A DNA stretch of 64,000 bases, from assembly GCA_047601445.1 (NCBI GenBank), contig JASGJH010000001.1, positions 3,392,001 through 3,456,000 of the forward strand. Reading direction: 5' to 3'. This DNA is from Myxococcales bacterium (GTDB lineage: Bacteria; Myxococcota_A; Polyangia; Polyangiales; DASUME01). Position numbers: made by a program. Shown one piece after another: positions 30,001 to 36,000 of this stretch (its first letter is position 1; each line of letters starts with the position of its first letter).

Positions 30001-33000
30001 ATCGCCGCCAACGCCTTCGCCACCACCACGCTCGCCGCTGCCATCGCAGGCGCCACCTGGCCCGCCATCGAGTGGCTCACTCACGGCAAGCCCACCGTGC
30101 TCGGCTTCTGCTCGGGCGTCGTCGCGGGCCTCGTCGTCATCACGCCGGCCGCCGGCTTCGTCACGCCCTCCGCCTCCGTGGCCATGGGCGCCATCGCGGG
30201 CGTCGTGTGCTTCTTCGCCTGCACCAAGCTCAAGGCCGCCCTCAAGTACGACGACGCGCTCGACACCTTCGGCGTCCATGGCGTCGGCGGCACCCTCGGC
30301 GCGGTGCTGACGGGCGTGTTCGCGACCCCCAGCGTCAACTCGGCCATCGAGCCCCTGATGGGTAGCCTGCTCGTGGAGCAGCTCAAGTCCATCGGCTTCA
30401 CGCTCGTCATCTCCGTGGTGTCCACGGTGGTGCTCGCCTCCATCGTCAAGGCCGTCATGGGACTTCGTCCCAACGCGGACGACGAGGAGACCGGCCTCGA
30501 CTACACCGACCACGGCGAGAGCGGCTACCACGACGAGACCGGTGGCGGTCACCTCTCGTTCCCCACGGCGGCTCGCGAAGAGACCGCTGCGGCCGCGGCT
30601 CCGGTCAAGGCCTGATCCGACGCCCACGCTGGGCACCTCGAGGGGCCGCGGTGGAGACGCCGCGGCCTTCGCTTTTCCGTCGAGCGCTCTCCGTCAGTCG
30701 CTCTACGGCGGGCTCATCACTCCTTGAGCGTGACCTTGAAGGGTTGGCTGATCTCCTGGAACACGGCCAACGCCTCCAGCTGTGCGGCGTCTGCCGAGAG
30801 GCGCGGCCAACGCTCGAGTTCGAGCAAACCTGGCAGAGCCTCCGTGGTGAAGCGCAGGACACACGCCACGGCGATGTCGGCGTGACTCAGCTGCGAGCCC
30901 AGCCAGTGCGGCGCCATGGACTCGCGTCGCTCGGACTCGAGGAGATCGAGCGTGTCCGTGATCTGGGCGCGACAGCGGTCACTCCACACGGCCGACGGAC
31001 GATCACGCAACACCCCCTCGTAAACCAAGCTCACGGCCTTGTCCCCGAGGCCCGTCGCGAAGCTGATCACGCGCAGTCCCCGTCGGCGCGCGGGGCCCGA
31101 GCGCGGCAAGAGCTGCTGCTCGGGCTCCACGCGCTGGTCGAGCTCGTCGAGGATGGTGGCACTTTCGATCAAGCTGGTGCCGTCGGGGAGCACCAGCACG
31201 GGCACGCGGCGCAGAGGGTTGAAGGCCGCCAGGCGATCGGCGTCGCCCCATACGGACCACGGGCGGTGCTCGAAGGGGATGCCGTAGAGGCGCATGGCGA
31301 TGCCGACACGGCGCACGAATGGGGAGTCGAACTGACCGATGAGGATCATGGGAGGCACCTTAGGCGATCGCGCCTGGAGCGTCCCGGGTGAGGATCAAGG
31401 CTGATGAGCCTGACGGGGGCCTGGGCGATCGCTCGGGAAAAGCGCCGGCTCCCTCTCGGGCGTAACACCTGAGCACTTGTCAAGGGGATCAGGGCACGCG
31501 ATATCTCAGCGTCGTGATCACCATCGTCGCCGAAAAGCCCTCCGTTGCCCGCGATATCGGGCGCGTATTGGGCGCCACCCAGCGAGGCGATGGCATGCTG
31601 CGCGGCGGGGGCTATGCGGTGACCTGGGCGGTCGGCCATCTGGTCGCACTGGCCGAGCCGGAGCGGGTCGACCCACGCTGGAAGTCGTGGCGCTTCGACT
31701 ATCTCCCCATGCTGCCGGAGCAGTGGCCGCTCTACGTGGTGGAGTCCACACGCGCGCAGTTCGAGGTCGTGCGTCGCTTGATCACGGCCCCCGAGACCAC
31801 CCAGGTCGTGTGCGCCACGGACGCGGGGCGCGAAGGGGAGCTCATCTTCCGCTACATCGCCGAGCTCGCCGAGCTGCGCAAGCCGGTCAAGCGCCTGTGG
31901 ATCTCGTCGCTCACCGACGAGGCGATTCGCGCGGGCTTCGAGCGCCTGCGCGGCGGGGCCGAGTTCGACGCGCTGGCCGACGCGGCGCGCGGACGCAGCC
32001 GGGCCGACTGGCTGGTGGGGATGAACCTGTCGCGGGCCTACACCTTGAAGGCGCAGAGCCAAACCGCGTTCGGTGAGAAGAGCCAAGTGTTCTCGGTGGG
32101 GCGCGTGCAGACGCCTACCCTGGCGATGATCGTGGAGCGCGATCGCAGCATTCGGAGCTTCGTTCCCGAGGAGTATCTGGAGGTCGTGCTGTCGCTCTCG
32201 CCGATCCCCGAGGGCCAGCTGTTCGAGGCGCGCTACGTGCGCTCCCCGGAGGATCGCGAGCCCAGTCGATTGCCGGTGAAGCCCAAGCTCGAGGGACAGC
32301 TTGGCGGACGCGAAGAAGCCGAGGCGCTGTGCGCTCGCGCCCGCACGGGCGAGATCGCGGTGCAGGCGGTGGAGCGTGAGGAAAAGCGCGCTCGCCCCCA
32401 GCTCTTGTACGACCTCACGGAGCTCCAGCGGCACGCGGCGCGTCTCTATGGCTTCTCGGCCAGCCGCACGCTGGAGATCGCCCAGCGTTTGTACGAGGAG
32501 CACAAGCTACTCAGCTACCCGCGTACGGACAGTCGTCACCTCACGAGCGATGTGGCGCGCACGCTGCCGGAGATCGTGGCGGCCGTCCGCGCTCCCTACG
32601 AGGCCTTGTTCGTGGTGGACCCGGCGCAGGGCTCACTCGGCAGGCGCTTCGTGGACGACGCCCAGGTACGCGACCACCACGCCATCATTCCCACGGGTAA
32701 GCCGTGTCGCCTGGGCCAGAGTACCGACGAGTTCAAACTCTACGACCTGGTCGTGCGGCGACTGTTGGCTGCGTTCCAACCGGACTACGTCTGGGCAGTC
32801 ACGTCGGTGCGCGTCGAGGTTAGCGCGAACGCGAGTTCCAGCGACGGTGCCGCCAAGTCGGGCTCCGCGCTCTCCGAGGCCACGGTCGATCACTACCTGG
32901 CGCGCGGGACCACGGTGCTGGCCGAGGGCCACCGCCAGCTCGACGTGAAGCTACGGGGGCGCTTCGACTCAAACGCAGTCGAGACGGAGTTGCCGCCGCT

Positions 33001-36000
33001 TGCCGAGGGAGAAGCGTTGCGGCTCGAGCAAGCGCGCGGCGACGAAAAGCAGACTCGTCCGCCACCGCCCTTCAGCGAGGCCAGCCTGCTGACAGCCATG
33101 GAGACCGCGGGTCGGGCCCTGGACGACAAGGAACTCTCCGAAGTCATGCGTGAGCGTGGGCTCGGTACGCCAGCAACCCGCGCGGCCATCATCGAGACCT
33201 TGTTGGCCCGCAACTTCGTGGTGCGCGATCAAAAGAGCCTGCGCAGCACGGAACGCGGCGAGGCGCTGATCGAGGCGGTGCATCCGCACGTAAAGAGCGC
33301 CCAGATGACGGGCGAGTGGGAGCACAAGCTACGGCAAATCGAGCGCGGAAGCCTGCAGCTCGAGCGGTTCATGGACGAGATCGCGGACTACGTTCGCGAG
33401 GTGGTGGGCAGCGTGGGCCAGGGCATGCCTCCCACCAGCACCAGGTCGTCGAGCGCCGCGTCGCACGCGTCGGCCATGCCGCTCGCCGCACGCCCCGAAG
33501 GTCGTCCGGCTCGGGCGCGCGACGCCGATGCGGAGCCCTATCAAGCGCGGGCCCCAGGCAGCGAGCCGTACCAGGCGCGAGCGCATGGCGGCGAGTCTCC
33601 CGCAACTCGGGCACCGAGCGCAGCAGCCAGACCGCGCGCGCCCGTGGTGCCGGGCACTCCGCTCGTCGAAGTGCTCGAGCAGCGCTTTGGCTTCTCGTCT
33701 TTCCGCCCCCATCAACGCGAGATCTGCGAGCTACTGGTGGCCGGCAACGACGCGCTGTTGGTGATGCCCACGGGAGCGGGCAAGTCCCTGTGCTACCAGC
33801 TGCCGGGCGTGGCGCGCGGAGGCACCACGCTGGTGGTGAGCCCGCTCATCGCGCTGATCGAAGATCAGGTGAGCAAGTTGCGCGCTCAGGGCTTGGTGGC
33901 GGAGCGCATTCATTCGGGGTTGCCACGCGACGCCGCGCGTGAGGTTTGTCGCAACTACCTGCGGGGTGACCTGGACTTCCTCTTCATCGCGCCGGAGCGC
34001 CTGCGCGTTCCCGGCTTCACCGAATTACTCGAGAAGCGTCCGCCGGCGCTGATCGCGGTCGACGAGGCCCACTGCATCTCGCAATGGGGCCACGATTTCC
34101 GGCCAGACTATCGCATGCTGCGCGATCGCCTGCCGAGGCGCGGCGCAGGCCCGGTGGTCGCACTCACAGCCACAGCCACACCCGAAGTCCAGCGGGACAT
34201 CGTCGACCAGCTGGGCATCCCCGGCGCCGCGCGCTCCATCCATGGCTTCCGCCGGCACAACCTGGAGGTGCAGGTCGTGGAAGCATTGCCGCGGCTGCGC
34301 GAGGACCTCGCGCGCAGCGTGCTCGGGCAAGCGGGACGACTCCCCGCCATCGTGTACGCACCCACTCGGAGTCGGGCCGATGAGGTCGCCGCGGCCCTCG
34401 GACAACGCTTCCGCTGCGCCGCCTATCACGCGGGCATGGATGGCAGCGCCCGTGAGCGCGTGCTGAGTGCGTTTCTTTCGGGACAGCTGGACGTGGTCGT
34501 GGCCACCATCGCCTTCGGCATGGGCGTCGACAAGGCCGACGTGCGCACCGTGCTGCACATGTCGAGTCCGGGCAGCGTCGAGGGTTACTACCAGGAAATC
34601 GGCCGGGCGGGGCGCGATGGCAAGCCCTCGTTGGCATTGCTGCTCACCTCGGCCGGCGACCGCCGCACCCACGAGTTCTTTTTCGAGCGCGACTACCCGG
34701 ACACGAGTGAACTCGAGCGGGTGTACTCCAAGCTCTCGGAGTCCCCCGTCTTCAAGGGCTCCTTGGCGCGCGTGCTCAAGCTCGAGGACGAAGTGCTCGA
34801 CCGCATCCTCGACAAGCTGTGGGTGCACGGGGGCGCGCGCATCGATCACGACGACCAAATCGTGCGGGGTCATGCCGAATTCCGCCGCACCTACCCCAAG
34901 CACCGTGCGAGCCGCGCCGCCCAGATCGCGCACATGGCCCGGTACATTCACACCGAAGAGTGCCGCATGCTGGCCCTGATCCGGCACTTCGGCGACGACG
35001 AAGATCTGGGCAAGCCGTGCGGCAACTGCGATCGCTGCCGACCCGAGCGGCGCCTGTTCGCGGGCCAGGCAGCGGAGCCCCAACCGCGCCCGCGCGCGGC
35101 CCGCACCCGCGGCTCGGAGCGGCGCACGCGAGCACGCCCCAACTACGACGACGTGGCCTCGGTGGAGGCCCCCGCCAAGCTCGTGGAGGCCCTGCGCACC
35201 TTCCGGCGTGAGGAAGCTCGGGCGCGGTCCATTCCGGCCTTTCGGGTGCTCACCGATCGCGTGCTCTTTGCCCTGGCCGAGGGCTGTCCGGCGAGCGAAG
35301 CGGAGCTGTTGGAGATCCAGGGCGTGGGACCGGCCCTGGCCAAGAAGTACGGCCCACGGTTGATCGCCATCGTGCGCGAGTGCACCCGCTGAGAGCTCCG
35401 CTTCGAGGTTGGCAGTCGCGAAAAATTCGCCATGCTGGGCGCGCCATGTCGGGCCCATCCACCTCAGGTTTCCGTGCCGCACTCTGGCTGTGTTCGTGCC
35501 TGAGCCTCATGGTCTACAAGGCCGTGACGGTGCTGCCCGTGTCCCCCGGGGGAGCCGCGAGTTCGCTGTTCGTCGAGGCCGCCTTCATGGGGCTGATCTT
35601 GGGCTCGTTTCAGCTCTTGGCCCACCTGTTACCGCGTGCCGATCGGCTCCTGGGCTGGGTCTTCGGAGTGCTGATGCTGGTGTGTCTCACCTTCTTCACC
35701 TCGCACGCCTACTTCTTCGCGTCAGCGGCCGAACGTCGCTTCTCGCCTCTCGACGTCGATCTCGCGGCCATTGGGTATTTCTTCAGTCACGTGTTGCCGC
35801 TCGACGGACTCGCCGCGTTACTCGCGACGGCACTGGTGAGCTTTGGCGGCGCCACCTGGATTTCGCGCCGGACCGACCTCAGCGCGTCACGGGCCTTCCG
35901 TGCAACGCTCGCGGTTCCGCTTCTGGCATCCATGGCACTCGTGGGGTGGGCGCCGCGCGTGCCCTCCCCCGTGATGGACATGGCCTACGGCGTCGTCGAG

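Follow-up and report, generated by a model that had tools for sequence, protein, structure and literature searches.

Topoisomerase III and RecQ-type helicases are, in other organisms, separate proteins, and whether bacterial RecQ and Topo III cooperate in the cell is still debated. What is to be made, then, of a single gene that codes for both? In the window (the whole stretch of 64,000 nucleotides of a Myxococcales genome analysed here), positions 31514..35392 of the forward strand form one uninterrupted frame with a GTG start, coding for 1292 amino acids plus a stop, with no internal stop upon translation (1308 residues from stop to stop). The N-terminus agrees with that of homologues, three residues preceding V4 in most of the 40 aligned rows. 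The product comprises a complete bacterial Topo III (residues 4-636), a linker and a RecQ-family helicase (residues 717-1290), and the survey's finding of a natural in-frame fusion is confirmed by the single frame, by Pfam and by a PDB sequence search. We consider it probable that the product is a bifunctional enzyme, active as one chain in which a decatenase of the Topo III type and a 3'-5' helicase of the RecQ type are held together by a basic, flexible linker.

The topoisomerase half begins with a Toprim domain (residues 4-132, 31523..31909, forward strand as all features below), followed by the type IA topoisomerase core, Topoisom_bac (residues 151-621, 31964..33376; Pfam 355.7 bits, E 4.6e-106), inside which lies the catalytic pair Tyr335-Pro336 (32516-32521). 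In the PDB sequence search residues 4-667 match residues 4-639 of E. coli Topo III (E 5e-94), and two TopB models exceed their cut-offs (NF005829, 656.8 against 597; TIGR01056, 549.6 against 515.75). A 16-residue segment (residues 531-546, 33104..33151) aligns without gaps with E. coli Topo III, and the TopA of the same genome shows a 16-residue gap at this position; we take it to be the site of the decatenation loop. Two signatures of Topo III, a lysine after the Toprim glutamate and a proline after the catalytic tyrosine (excerpts of PMC10969213), are present as E7-K8 and Y335-P336 and are invariant in 40/40 aligned fused proteins. The same holds for D103-A-G105-R-E107, and Glu7, Asp103, Glu107, Tyr335, Arg337 and the remaining topoisomerase core do not vary in this set either.

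One feature departs from the textbook. The Toprim motif is usually DxD (excerpts of PMC10969213), as against DxG in the fused protein: in D103-A-G105 the second aspartate of the acidic pair is replaced by glycine, a difference from E. coli Topo III. The survey had pointed to this substitution among fused relatives, and it is real there (36/36 fused sequences, including the frameshifted locus L046), but it is not specific to the fusion, as all of the 18 free-standing Myxococcota TopBs examined share it. It is therefore a trait of the clade rather than the sign of a damaged fusion. With DxG in place of DxD, metal handling may differ from that of DxD enzymes, which counts somewhat against an enzyme active in both functions.

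Between the halves, 80 residues of low complexity (637-716, 33422..33661), rich in A, P, R and S and with a net charge of +4, form the interdomain linker. Among the 40 aligned fused proteins the gap between the halves ranges from 30 to 143 residues, with 360 in one; low complexity and variable length are what would be expected of a tether.

The second half is built around a RecQ-type SF2 motor (DEAD, residues 731-893, and Helicase_C, residues 944-1036; 33704..34621). Residues 719-1050 match residues 15-345 of E. coli RecQ (PDB sequence search, E 2.4e-88), the recQ_fam model TIGR00614 scores 369.1 bits for a cut-off of 219.8, and the AlphaFold2 (AF2) model of the motor, with a pLDDT of 90.4, retrieves the cores of RecQ, BLM and RECQL5 in Foldseek (E 1e-36 to 1e-28). 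There follow a zinc-binding domain, RecQ_Zn_bind (residues 1128-1176, 34895..35041; Pfam 35.3 against a cut-off of 25), with cysteines 1150, 1169, 1172 and 1175, and an HRDC domain (residues 1222-1287, 35177..35374; 65 bits against 23.8), modelled as a helical bundle. The catalytic motifs reported by the survey are all there and invariant in 40/40 aligned fused proteins: G754, K757 and S758 of Walker A, D850-E-A-H853, and Q1027..G1030-R-A-G-R-D1035; conservation in this set extends over Walker A, DEAH, one further loop, motif VI and the four zinc cysteines. The strict RecQ equivalog model TIGR01389, by contrast, is not reached (466.9 against a cut-off of 640.2), and Pfam detects no RQC domain (PF09382) in the fused protein, two observations that weigh against the bifunctional reading. 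Both free RecQs of the genome carry PF09382.

The survey had described the helicase as devoid of the RQC winged helix. This is correct for the canonical position, which is occupied by a second low-complexity spacer without a Pfam RQC match (residues 1177-1221, 35042..35176, low pLDDT): 51 residues, mostly disordered, with pLDDT below 50 for residues 1195-1216, separate the zinc cluster from HRDC. It is not correct for the helicase as a whole, where, in the AF2 model, a winged-helix-fold module is inserted within the Zn subdomain, between the motor and the zinc cluster (residues ~1061-1120, 34694..34873). Its modelled topology is helix-helix-helix-strand-strand, and among the matches listed by a wide VIA-align comparison, 50/50 are winged-helix proteins, with best Z scores of 8.2-7.5 (4wcg, rmsd 1.6 over 59 residues; 3maj, 2.0 over 60). 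The interval from the motor to the zinc cysteines measures 99 residues in 38/40 aligned fused proteins. In length alone, this may be likened to the spacer of about 90 residues that separates the ATPase domain from the tetracysteine zinc domain in Mycobacterium smegmatis RqlH (excerpts of PMC3378886). RqlH, however, is described there as lacking HRDC and ending with a ComF/phosphoribosyltransferase-like domain; the fused clade differs on both points, Pfam returning HRDC and no PRTase match. As a side observation, 141-163 residues lie between zinc cluster and HRDC in 18/40 aligned relatives, an extra stretch that is missing from the present protein.

Is this protein an isolated curiosity? Among the 120 database relatives listed, the first of which is the protein of the window itself, all combine PF01131, PF00270, PF00271, PF01751 and PF16124, and only four lack an HRDC match. 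Across 400 other Myxococcota genomes, from which 40 candidate regions were fetched, both halves stand in one open frame in at least 22. In the genome_contigs set, 11 of the 15 loci with both halves have them in one frame, while frame changes interrupt the other four (L014, L015, L017 and L046). The architecture is further found in Acidobacteriota, in an Oligoflexus metagenome-assembled genome and in Bradymonadales. The fused form is thus spread across at least three phyla, and the recurrence in Myxococcota and Acidobacteriota claimed by the survey is borne out by open-frame loci as well as database relatives. We found no description of it in the full-text literature as searchable, dedicated reviews of type IA topoisomerases included.

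In the genome at hand PF01131 matches two places, a TopA-like gene and the fused frame, and recQ_fam exceeds its cut-off at three, the fused frame and two free genes; the profile searches hence uphold the statement that the fusion is the sole Topo III, beside two free RecQ genes. That it should always be so does not hold, since five fused genomes, all of one genus, also possess a free TopB. No reverse gyrase gene is present in this genome, the type IA genes being two only. The gene context is that of chromosomal housekeeping, with alanine racemase, a NUDIX protein, an aldolase, two ammonium transporters, a GST, an HtrA-like protease, NAD synthase and RseP as neighbours, and across 36 fused loci no neighbour is conserved beyond one genus.

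In the tree the Topo halves of the fused proteins group together in a single clade (SH-aLRT 100), a pattern compatible with the fusion having arisen once. The helicase halves belong to a separate RecQ clade (SH-aLRT 100, stem 0.59), apart from 42 other RecQs, and their monophyly is not rejected (p-AU 0.474). This small helicase clade also includes free-standing members, and close free-standing relatives occur in four genomes without any Topo III: the helicase clade does not strictly need a Topo III, a point to be set against the bifunctional reading. Phyla are mixed in the phylogeny.

How would such an enzyme work? The reaction that we envisage is the one carried out in trans in vitro by E. 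coli RecQ and Topo III (with SSB) and, in eukaryotes, by BLM or Sgs1 with Top3 and Rmi1. The helicase half would use its motor, its winged-helix insert, the Zn subdomain and HRDC to bind DNA with gaps, forks or junctions, and would unwind the duplex with ATP. This would provide the single-stranded DNA required by the Topo III half, which, kept within reach, would cut one strand via Tyr335 and let another strand pass through the gate. The net result would be to unlink precatenanes and converging forks, and to remove hemicatenanes, D-loops or double Holliday junctions without crossover. Most likely, then, the protein would act as a tethered helicase-plus-decatenase unlinking replication and recombination intermediates, and the survey's label of 'dissolvasome' should be taken in this presumptive functional sense. 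RecQ stimulates catenation and decatenation by Topo III in vitro, with a requirement for ATP hydrolysis (excerpts of PMC13760219 and PMC7245102). Against a tethered partnership, recent E. coli genetics did not find RecQ and Topo III cooperating in vivo, and pointed to RecG instead (2026, excerpts of PMC13244152).

Comparison with known systems is instructive. As in the eukaryotic dissolvasome (BLM-Top3alpha-RMI1/2 or Sgs1-Top3-Rmi1), a RecQ helicase is physically coupled to Topo III, but in the present protein the link between the two is covalent, the topoisomerase contains the loop itself, and there is no conserved adjoining partner gene at the 36 fused loci. Bennett and Wang are reported to have studied an engineered Top3-Sgs1 fusion in 2001. 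The E. coli pair comprises the same two enzyme families, and the decatenation loop, RecQ motor, zinc cluster and HRDC are common to both systems; yet the fused helicase comes from another RecQ clade than E. coli RecQ, is devoid of the RQC winged helix and carries a winged-helix insert in the Zn subdomain. The E. coli enzymes are, moreover, two proteins for which no physical contact has been observed and whose cooperation in vivo is doubted (excerpts of PMC13244152 and PMC3905885), as opposed to one polypeptide here.

Several other readings have to be weighed. Reverse gyrase, known only from thermophiles, likewise unites an SF2 helicase-like and a type IA topoisomerase unit naturally in one chain; its helicase-like unit falls short of a complete RecQ with zinc cluster and HRDC. 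A mesophilic counterpart, an integrated topological motor powered by ATP in which the helicase gates the topoisomerase and drives directional strand passage (net supercoiling or processive unlinking) instead of just providing single-stranded DNA, is suggested by the covalent fusion itself (excerpts of PMC2504306 and PMC7245102) and by the insert of fixed length, which could serve as a latch. We hold it to be unlikely: the order of domains is opposite, as the survey had stated and the Pfam layout bears out, reverse gyrase having its helicase N-terminal and its topoisomerase C-terminal (excerpts of PMC2504306); the model TIGR01054, whose cut-off is 471.7, scores 114 bits, and identity with reverse gyrase was rejected on both counts. 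The variable low-complexity linker speaks against a rigid interface, the insert is also found in free-standing relatives from genomes without Topo III, and the helicase retains the full set of RecQ motifs with HRDC. A related and rather doubtful proposal, which we give somewhat more credit, is that of an ancient, selected coupling of Topo III with a specialised RecQ, a self-contained bacterial dissolvasome whose helicase, with its Zn-subdomain winged helix, would actively control the gate; unlinking or supercoiling would then be processive and directed by ATP, which neither enzyme achieves on its own. If true, it would settle the disputed RecQ/Topo III partnership in bacteria, and the fusion would be the second natural machine, after reverse gyrase, to combine a helicase with a type IA enzyme, and the first in non-thermophiles.

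The glycine present in the Toprim motif of every member might alternatively mean a catalytically weakened topoisomerase half, whose main role would be to direct the helicase as a clamp or gate on single-stranded DNA. This seems quite improbable, as the free TopBs of the phylum with the same motif are the sole Topo III candidates in their genomes, and the invariance of the catalytic residues and core argues for selection on catalysis; E. coli Topo I, according to Zhu and Tse-Dinh, reportedly keeps activity after single substitutions in its acidic triad. A gene of mobile elements or defence systems, rather than of chromosome maintenance, would have its parallels in the Topo III genes of plasmids and in helicases related to DpdF; a low-scoring DpdF hit (208 bits, the cut-off being 550), a Zeta-toxin-like domain in the linker of relative P0091 and the mixed phyla of the tree go in this direction. 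The housekeeping neighbours, the want of any neighbour kept beyond one genus and a GC content even across the Topo/helicase junction (0.676-0.696) make it very unlikely. That two adjacent genes were joined by an assembly or annotation artefact, as the four interrupted loci might suggest, is hardly credible: the window lies on a single 9.5-Mb contig, the junction shows neither stop nor start signal, and 33 further loci from independent assemblies have an uninterrupted frame.

The bifunctional tethered enzyme thus keeps our preference. A conserved natural fusion, the sole Topo III here and present in at least three phyla, amounts to 'Rosetta-stone' evidence for joint use of the two activities. 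In a paper of 2020, reverse gyrase is called the unique fusion of helicase and type IA units (excerpts of PMC7245102). New in the present analysis are the single clade of the Topo halves, the separate helicase clade, the predicted winged-helix module of the Zn subdomain and the DxG motif of free TopBs. The protein offers a one-chain, RMI1-free helicase-topoisomerase model for biochemistry, single-molecule work and cryo-EM, with natural controls at hand in the free-standing sister helicases and the free TopBs of related genomes. The fused form recurs, it may be added, among several soil-bacterial phyla.

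The open reading frame at window 31514-35392 (+) begins with GTG and runs for 1292 codons in a single frame (1308 codons from stop to stop), with an even GC content along the gene (0.676-0.696). Pfam places a Toprim domain at residues 4-132, a type IA topoisomerase core at 151-621 (E 4.6e-106), DEAD at 731-893, Helicase_C at 944-1036, RecQ_Zn_bind at 1128-1176 and HRDC at 1222-1287. The N-terminal half exceeds the cut-offs of two Topo III models of NCBIfam (NF005829, 656.8 against 597; TIGR01056, 549.6 against 515.75). The C-terminal half passes that of a RecQ-family subfamily model (369.1 against 219.8) but falls below that of the strict RecQ equivalog (466.9 against 640.2). 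In a search against solved structures, residues 4-667 align with residues 4-639 of Escherichia coli Topo III (E 5e-94) and residues 719-1050 with residues 15-345 of E. coli RecQ (E 2.4e-88); the survey's finding was reproduced in all its figures, within rounding. The genome is a single 9.5-Mb contig, in which the type IA core model matches the fusion and, at one other place, a TopA-like gene that has three Zn ribbons. As a consequence, the fusion is indeed the only Topo III candidate of this organism, and by the same model there is no reverse gyrase. RecQ-family matches over the cut-off comprise the fusion and two free genes, both with an RQC domain, the winged helix that follows the Zn subdomain in canonical RecQ, and HRDC.

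It is probable that this protein is a helicase-coupled Topo III that unlinks DNA intermediates; we infer its activities, their coupling and its substrates. The helicase half would load on gapped, forked or junction DNA and unwind it with ATP, while the tethered Topo III half, being nearby, would take the exposed single strand for strand passage. The joint outcome would be the unlinking of precatenanes and converging forks, and the dissolution of hemicatenanes, D-loops or double Holliday junctions. The same activity operates in trans with E. coli RecQ and Topo III and with eukaryotic complexes, according to published work (PMC13760219, PMC7245102, PMC13244152). What is new here is that a functional pair already known occurs in nature in this architecture, and with a helicase from a distinct lineage. 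The architecture, shown here together with its conservation, can be seen in databases, where these proteins are plainly named 'DNA topoisomerase 3', with a single JGI entry reading 'DNA topoisomerase III/RecQ family ATP-dependent DNA helicase'. Full-text searches of the open literature, subscription journals, InterPro and preprint supplements aside, turned up no account of Topo III and RecQ fused in nature. A 2022 survey of type IA C-terminal domains returns neither RecQ, helicase nor fusion when its text is searched for these terms (PMC9369019), and a 2024 review of type IA diversity does not mention RecQ (PMC10969213). A 2020 paper presents reverse gyrase as a fusion of these units made 'uniquely' by hyperthermophiles (PMC7245102), and a 2026 paper holds that a physical interaction of RecQ with Topo III is unobserved in bacteria (PMC13244152). 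As far as we could search, the architecture has therefore gone undiscussed.

The fused architecture recurs in relatives, as had been claimed. All 120 database relatives listed, the first of which is the window's own protein, carry both halves (an HRDC match is missing in four), under source names that include Polyangiales, Myxococcaceae, Thermoanaerobaculia, Solibacter and Bryobacteraceae. Among 401 Myxococcota genomes sampled, 149 exceed the TopB cut-off. From 150 listed TopB matches we took 40 regions, namely all 33 with frames of at least 1150 aa and seven with frames of 1055-1090 aa. Both halves share one open frame in 22 of them, while the other 18 have the topoisomerase only. The fusion is thus present in at least 22 of 400 other Myxococcota genomes, a lower bound since the figure covers the listed matches and sets aside 416 weaker ones. 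Frames of at least 1150 aa around 11 free-standing Topo III genes (free TopBs) were suspected of being further fusions and were discarded. In eight of ten topoisomerase-only loci examined the EKP motif lies 286-939 residues into the frame, so that most of the length is due to open frame ahead of the start codon in high-GC DNA. In a named genome collection, 15 loci have both halves. Eleven are one open frame, from Bryobacterales, Terriglobia, Solibacteraceae, Bryobacter, Polyangiaceae, and Oligoflexus, Bradymonadales and 'proteobacterium' MAGs, the Bradymonadales locus being identical to one of the 22 fusions of the Myxococcota sample. In the remaining four (L014, L015, L017 and L046), which mostly come from a single series of long-read MAGs, frame changes or gaps interrupt the fused gene; errors of long-read assembly, pseudogenes or genuine split forms may account for this. 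Shorter homologues, sought with residues 1-650, are for the most part fragments of this family cut off at contig ends, and a few proteins of 610-705 aa on long contigs could be split forms.

An artefact of assembly or annotation has next to no probability as the origin of the fusion, in view of the one-frame loci in both sets. Another reading makes of the N-terminal half a weakened topoisomerase that serves as a clamp. Alignment of 40 fused proteins shows invariant Glu7-Lys8, Asp103-Ala-Gly105-Arg-Glu107 and Tyr335-Pro336-Arg337 in the topoisomerase half and, in the helicase half, Walker A residues G754, K757 and S758, DEAH at 850-853, an HCISxWGHDFRP loop, QxxGRAGRD at 1027-1035 and the four Zn cysteines; conservation of this kind indicates that both halves are under selection. 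Residues 531-546, a segment of 16 residues, align without gap to E. coli Topo III and are deleted in the genome's own TopA. Their position is that of the Topo III 'decatenation loop'. The role of this loop is described in the 2026 paper (PMC13244152), and the 2024 review gives a Lys after the Toprim Glu and a Pro after the catalytic Tyr as marks of Topo III against Topo I (PMC10969213). The survey's finding had raised a concern over the Toprim acidic motif, which reads DxG and not DxD. The motif itself is confirmed, DAGREG being present in 36 of 36 fused sequences examined, frameshifted L046 included; it is not peculiar to the fusion, for 18 of 18 free-standing Myxococcota TopBs have it too. 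DxG thus characterises the TopB lineage as such and is not a lesion linked to fusion, and we hold the clamp to be quite improbable. A directional motor in the manner of reverse gyrase is unlikely as well. The linker (residues 637-716) is rich in Ala, Pro, Arg and Ser, with a net charge of +4, and in the 40 fused proteins the two halves lie 30 to 143 aa apart, or 360 aa in one, so that from its sequence it looks like a flexible tether and not a fixed interface; no tandem repeats were found in its DNA by a tandem repeat finder. Prediction of a complex between the topoisomerase half (1-640) and the RecQ motor (715-1070) scored 0.00, which carries no weight for or against docking. The exceptional 360-aa linker belongs to a metagenomic protein of 1627 aa (P0091) and contains a Zeta-toxin-like P-loop domain (residues 780-859, Pfam 33.6 bits).

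A role in mobile elements or defence would be very unlikely for a gene in such a setting. The neighbours are ordinary chromosomal genes, for alanine racemase, a NUDIX protein, a class II aldolase, a TPR protein, an HtrA-like protease, NAD synthase, a transglutaminase-like protein and RseP, together with a divergently transcribed GST and, upstream, two tandem ammonium transporters (window 27398-28984 and 29122-30615, both +; Pfam E 1e-109 and 1e-112). No neighbour, an SSB or an RMI1-like OB-fold protein for example, stays with the fusion beyond one genus in the 36 fused loci compared, and the fusion therefore stands alone, with no visible partner gene or mobile-element frame. A sulfatase-family ORF of 600 aa (window 35380-37182, +; Pfam 37.7 bits) starts 13 nt ahead of the fusion's stop codon, and this overlap on the same strand makes co-transcription of the two possible; other fused loci do not keep the pairing. 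A consensus promoter and terminator scan returned no promoter-like site near the fusion. In window 31477-31513, the 12 nt before the GTG start lack a Shine-Dalgarno-like purine run, and a TTGTCA-17 nt-GATATC arrangement ends 9 nt before the start, for which reason the transcript might have almost no leader, or none at all. RecG was not detected in the source genome (98.7% complete): RecG_wedge has no match, and the best TIGR00643 match, 368 bits against a cut-off of 659, lies on a 1221-aa frame that we guess to be Mfd-like. A link between this absence and the fusion was dropped, as the RecG wedge is present in three of five fused genomes against one of five free-TopB genomes; the RecG model missed five of 14 control genomes.

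When 54 TopB halves are placed in a tree with TopA as root, every fused half (35 and L046) falls in one clade (SH-aLRT 100), with free TopBs outside it and the Acidobacteriota halves nested among Myxococcota ones. A second tree, of 99 RecQ cores, unites 37 fused halves with 20 free-standing proteins, interleaved, in one clade (SH-aLRT 100, stem 0.59), apart from 42 ordinary RecQs, both free RecQs of the source genome among them. These free-standing relatives start at the RecQ N-terminus, have the same domains and are 53-59% identical to the fused helicase half. Since the topoisomerase halves are monophyletic and a single clade for the fused helicase halves is not rejected by the AU test (p-AU 0.474, delta lnL 6.2), one fusion event fits both halves, with later fissions or duplications possible. 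In four genomes with the free-standing form only (those of loci L020 from Tunturibacter, L021, L037 and L031), the type IA enzyme is a TopA-like protein alone, 27-28% identical to the topoisomerase half, so that Topo III is dispensable for this helicase lineage. TopA, the fusion and a free copy occur together in one Polyangiaceae MAG, and five fused genomes of one genus keep a free TopB beside the fusion. Several free Myxococcota TopBs (among L087-L126) extend 580-730 residues past the catalytic Tyr. In the window's protein the Topo III core ends about 300 residues past it, and C-terminal extensions of an estimated 200-400 aa or so are therefore suggested for these free TopBs. This helicase lineage is a small one: among 1.84 billion cluster representatives, a 136-residue probe over the special insert of the helicase half retrieves 262 at E <= 1e-10; the best 150 comprise 15 clearly fused members and three more that are probably fused and N-truncated, 13 free-standing-like ones and 119 fragments or unassigned sequences. 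In one member of the helicase clade (P0301, 772 aa) Helicase_C, the Zn domain and HRDC come after an N-terminal region that matches Guanylate_cyc (39.4 bits) and not DEAD, perhaps because the protein is chimeric or miscalled.

An AlphaFold2 model of residues 700-1292 (pLDDT 90.4, pTM 0.78) retrieves with Foldseek the catalytic cores of BLM, bacterial RecQ, RECQL5 and WRN (E 1e-36 to 1e-28). The assertion that the protein has no RQC holds at the canonical place, where 51 residues separate the Zn cluster from HRDC, with residues 1195-1216 predicted to be disordered, and where the Pfam scan finds no RQC; it needs amending in that a module of winged-helix fold is predicted elsewhere, before the Zn cysteines. 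The distance from Zn cluster to HRDC is 29-68 aa in 22 of the 40 fused proteins, the window's included, and 141-163 aa in the 18 others, which mostly bear Acidobacteriota names (P0041, P0042, P0046 and 15 more). Free-standing relatives such as L018 and L020 are alike, the conserved region spanning 135-163 aa in this long form. It has no Pfam match, and comparison of its 135-150 aa, fused and free-standing, with canonical RQC by hhalign reveals no likeness (probability 0.2). On the other side of the Zn cysteines, the motor end is separated from the first of them by 99 aa in 38 of the 40 fused proteins, far above E. coli RecQ. The recQ models cover only residues 78-131 of the 136-residue probe (protein residues 1123-1176), which leaves about 77 residues beyond the motor unmatched by these models, and no NCBIfam family covers residues 1046-1122. 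Within this region, residues ~1061-1120 (window 34694-34873) are folded helix-helix-helix-strand-strand in the AlphaFold2 model. When a separate model of residues 1046-1181 (pLDDT 87) is compared by VIA-align with about 48,000 representative chains, all 50 rows listed are winged-helix proteins, including IclR/MarR regulators, Z-alpha domains, the DprA C-terminal domain, RPA32C and Stn1, with Z values of 8.2-7.5, middling by the tool's own warning, and rmsd of 1.6 over 59 and 2.0 over 60 residues. Foldseek against its 'pdb' set has no match for this subdomain at E <= 0.001, and because of this and of the middling Z we hold with moderate confidence only that the predicted insert is of winged-helix fold. 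The 90-aa spacer between the ATPase and Zn domains of RqlH, as described in a published study (PMC3378886), resembles it in layout; the same source portrays RqlH as having a ComF-like C-terminal domain and lacking HRDC, unlike the helicase half studied here. The fixed-length insert of winged-helix fold is likewise predicted between motor and Zn cysteines in free-standing members of the lineage (L018, L020, L021, L037).
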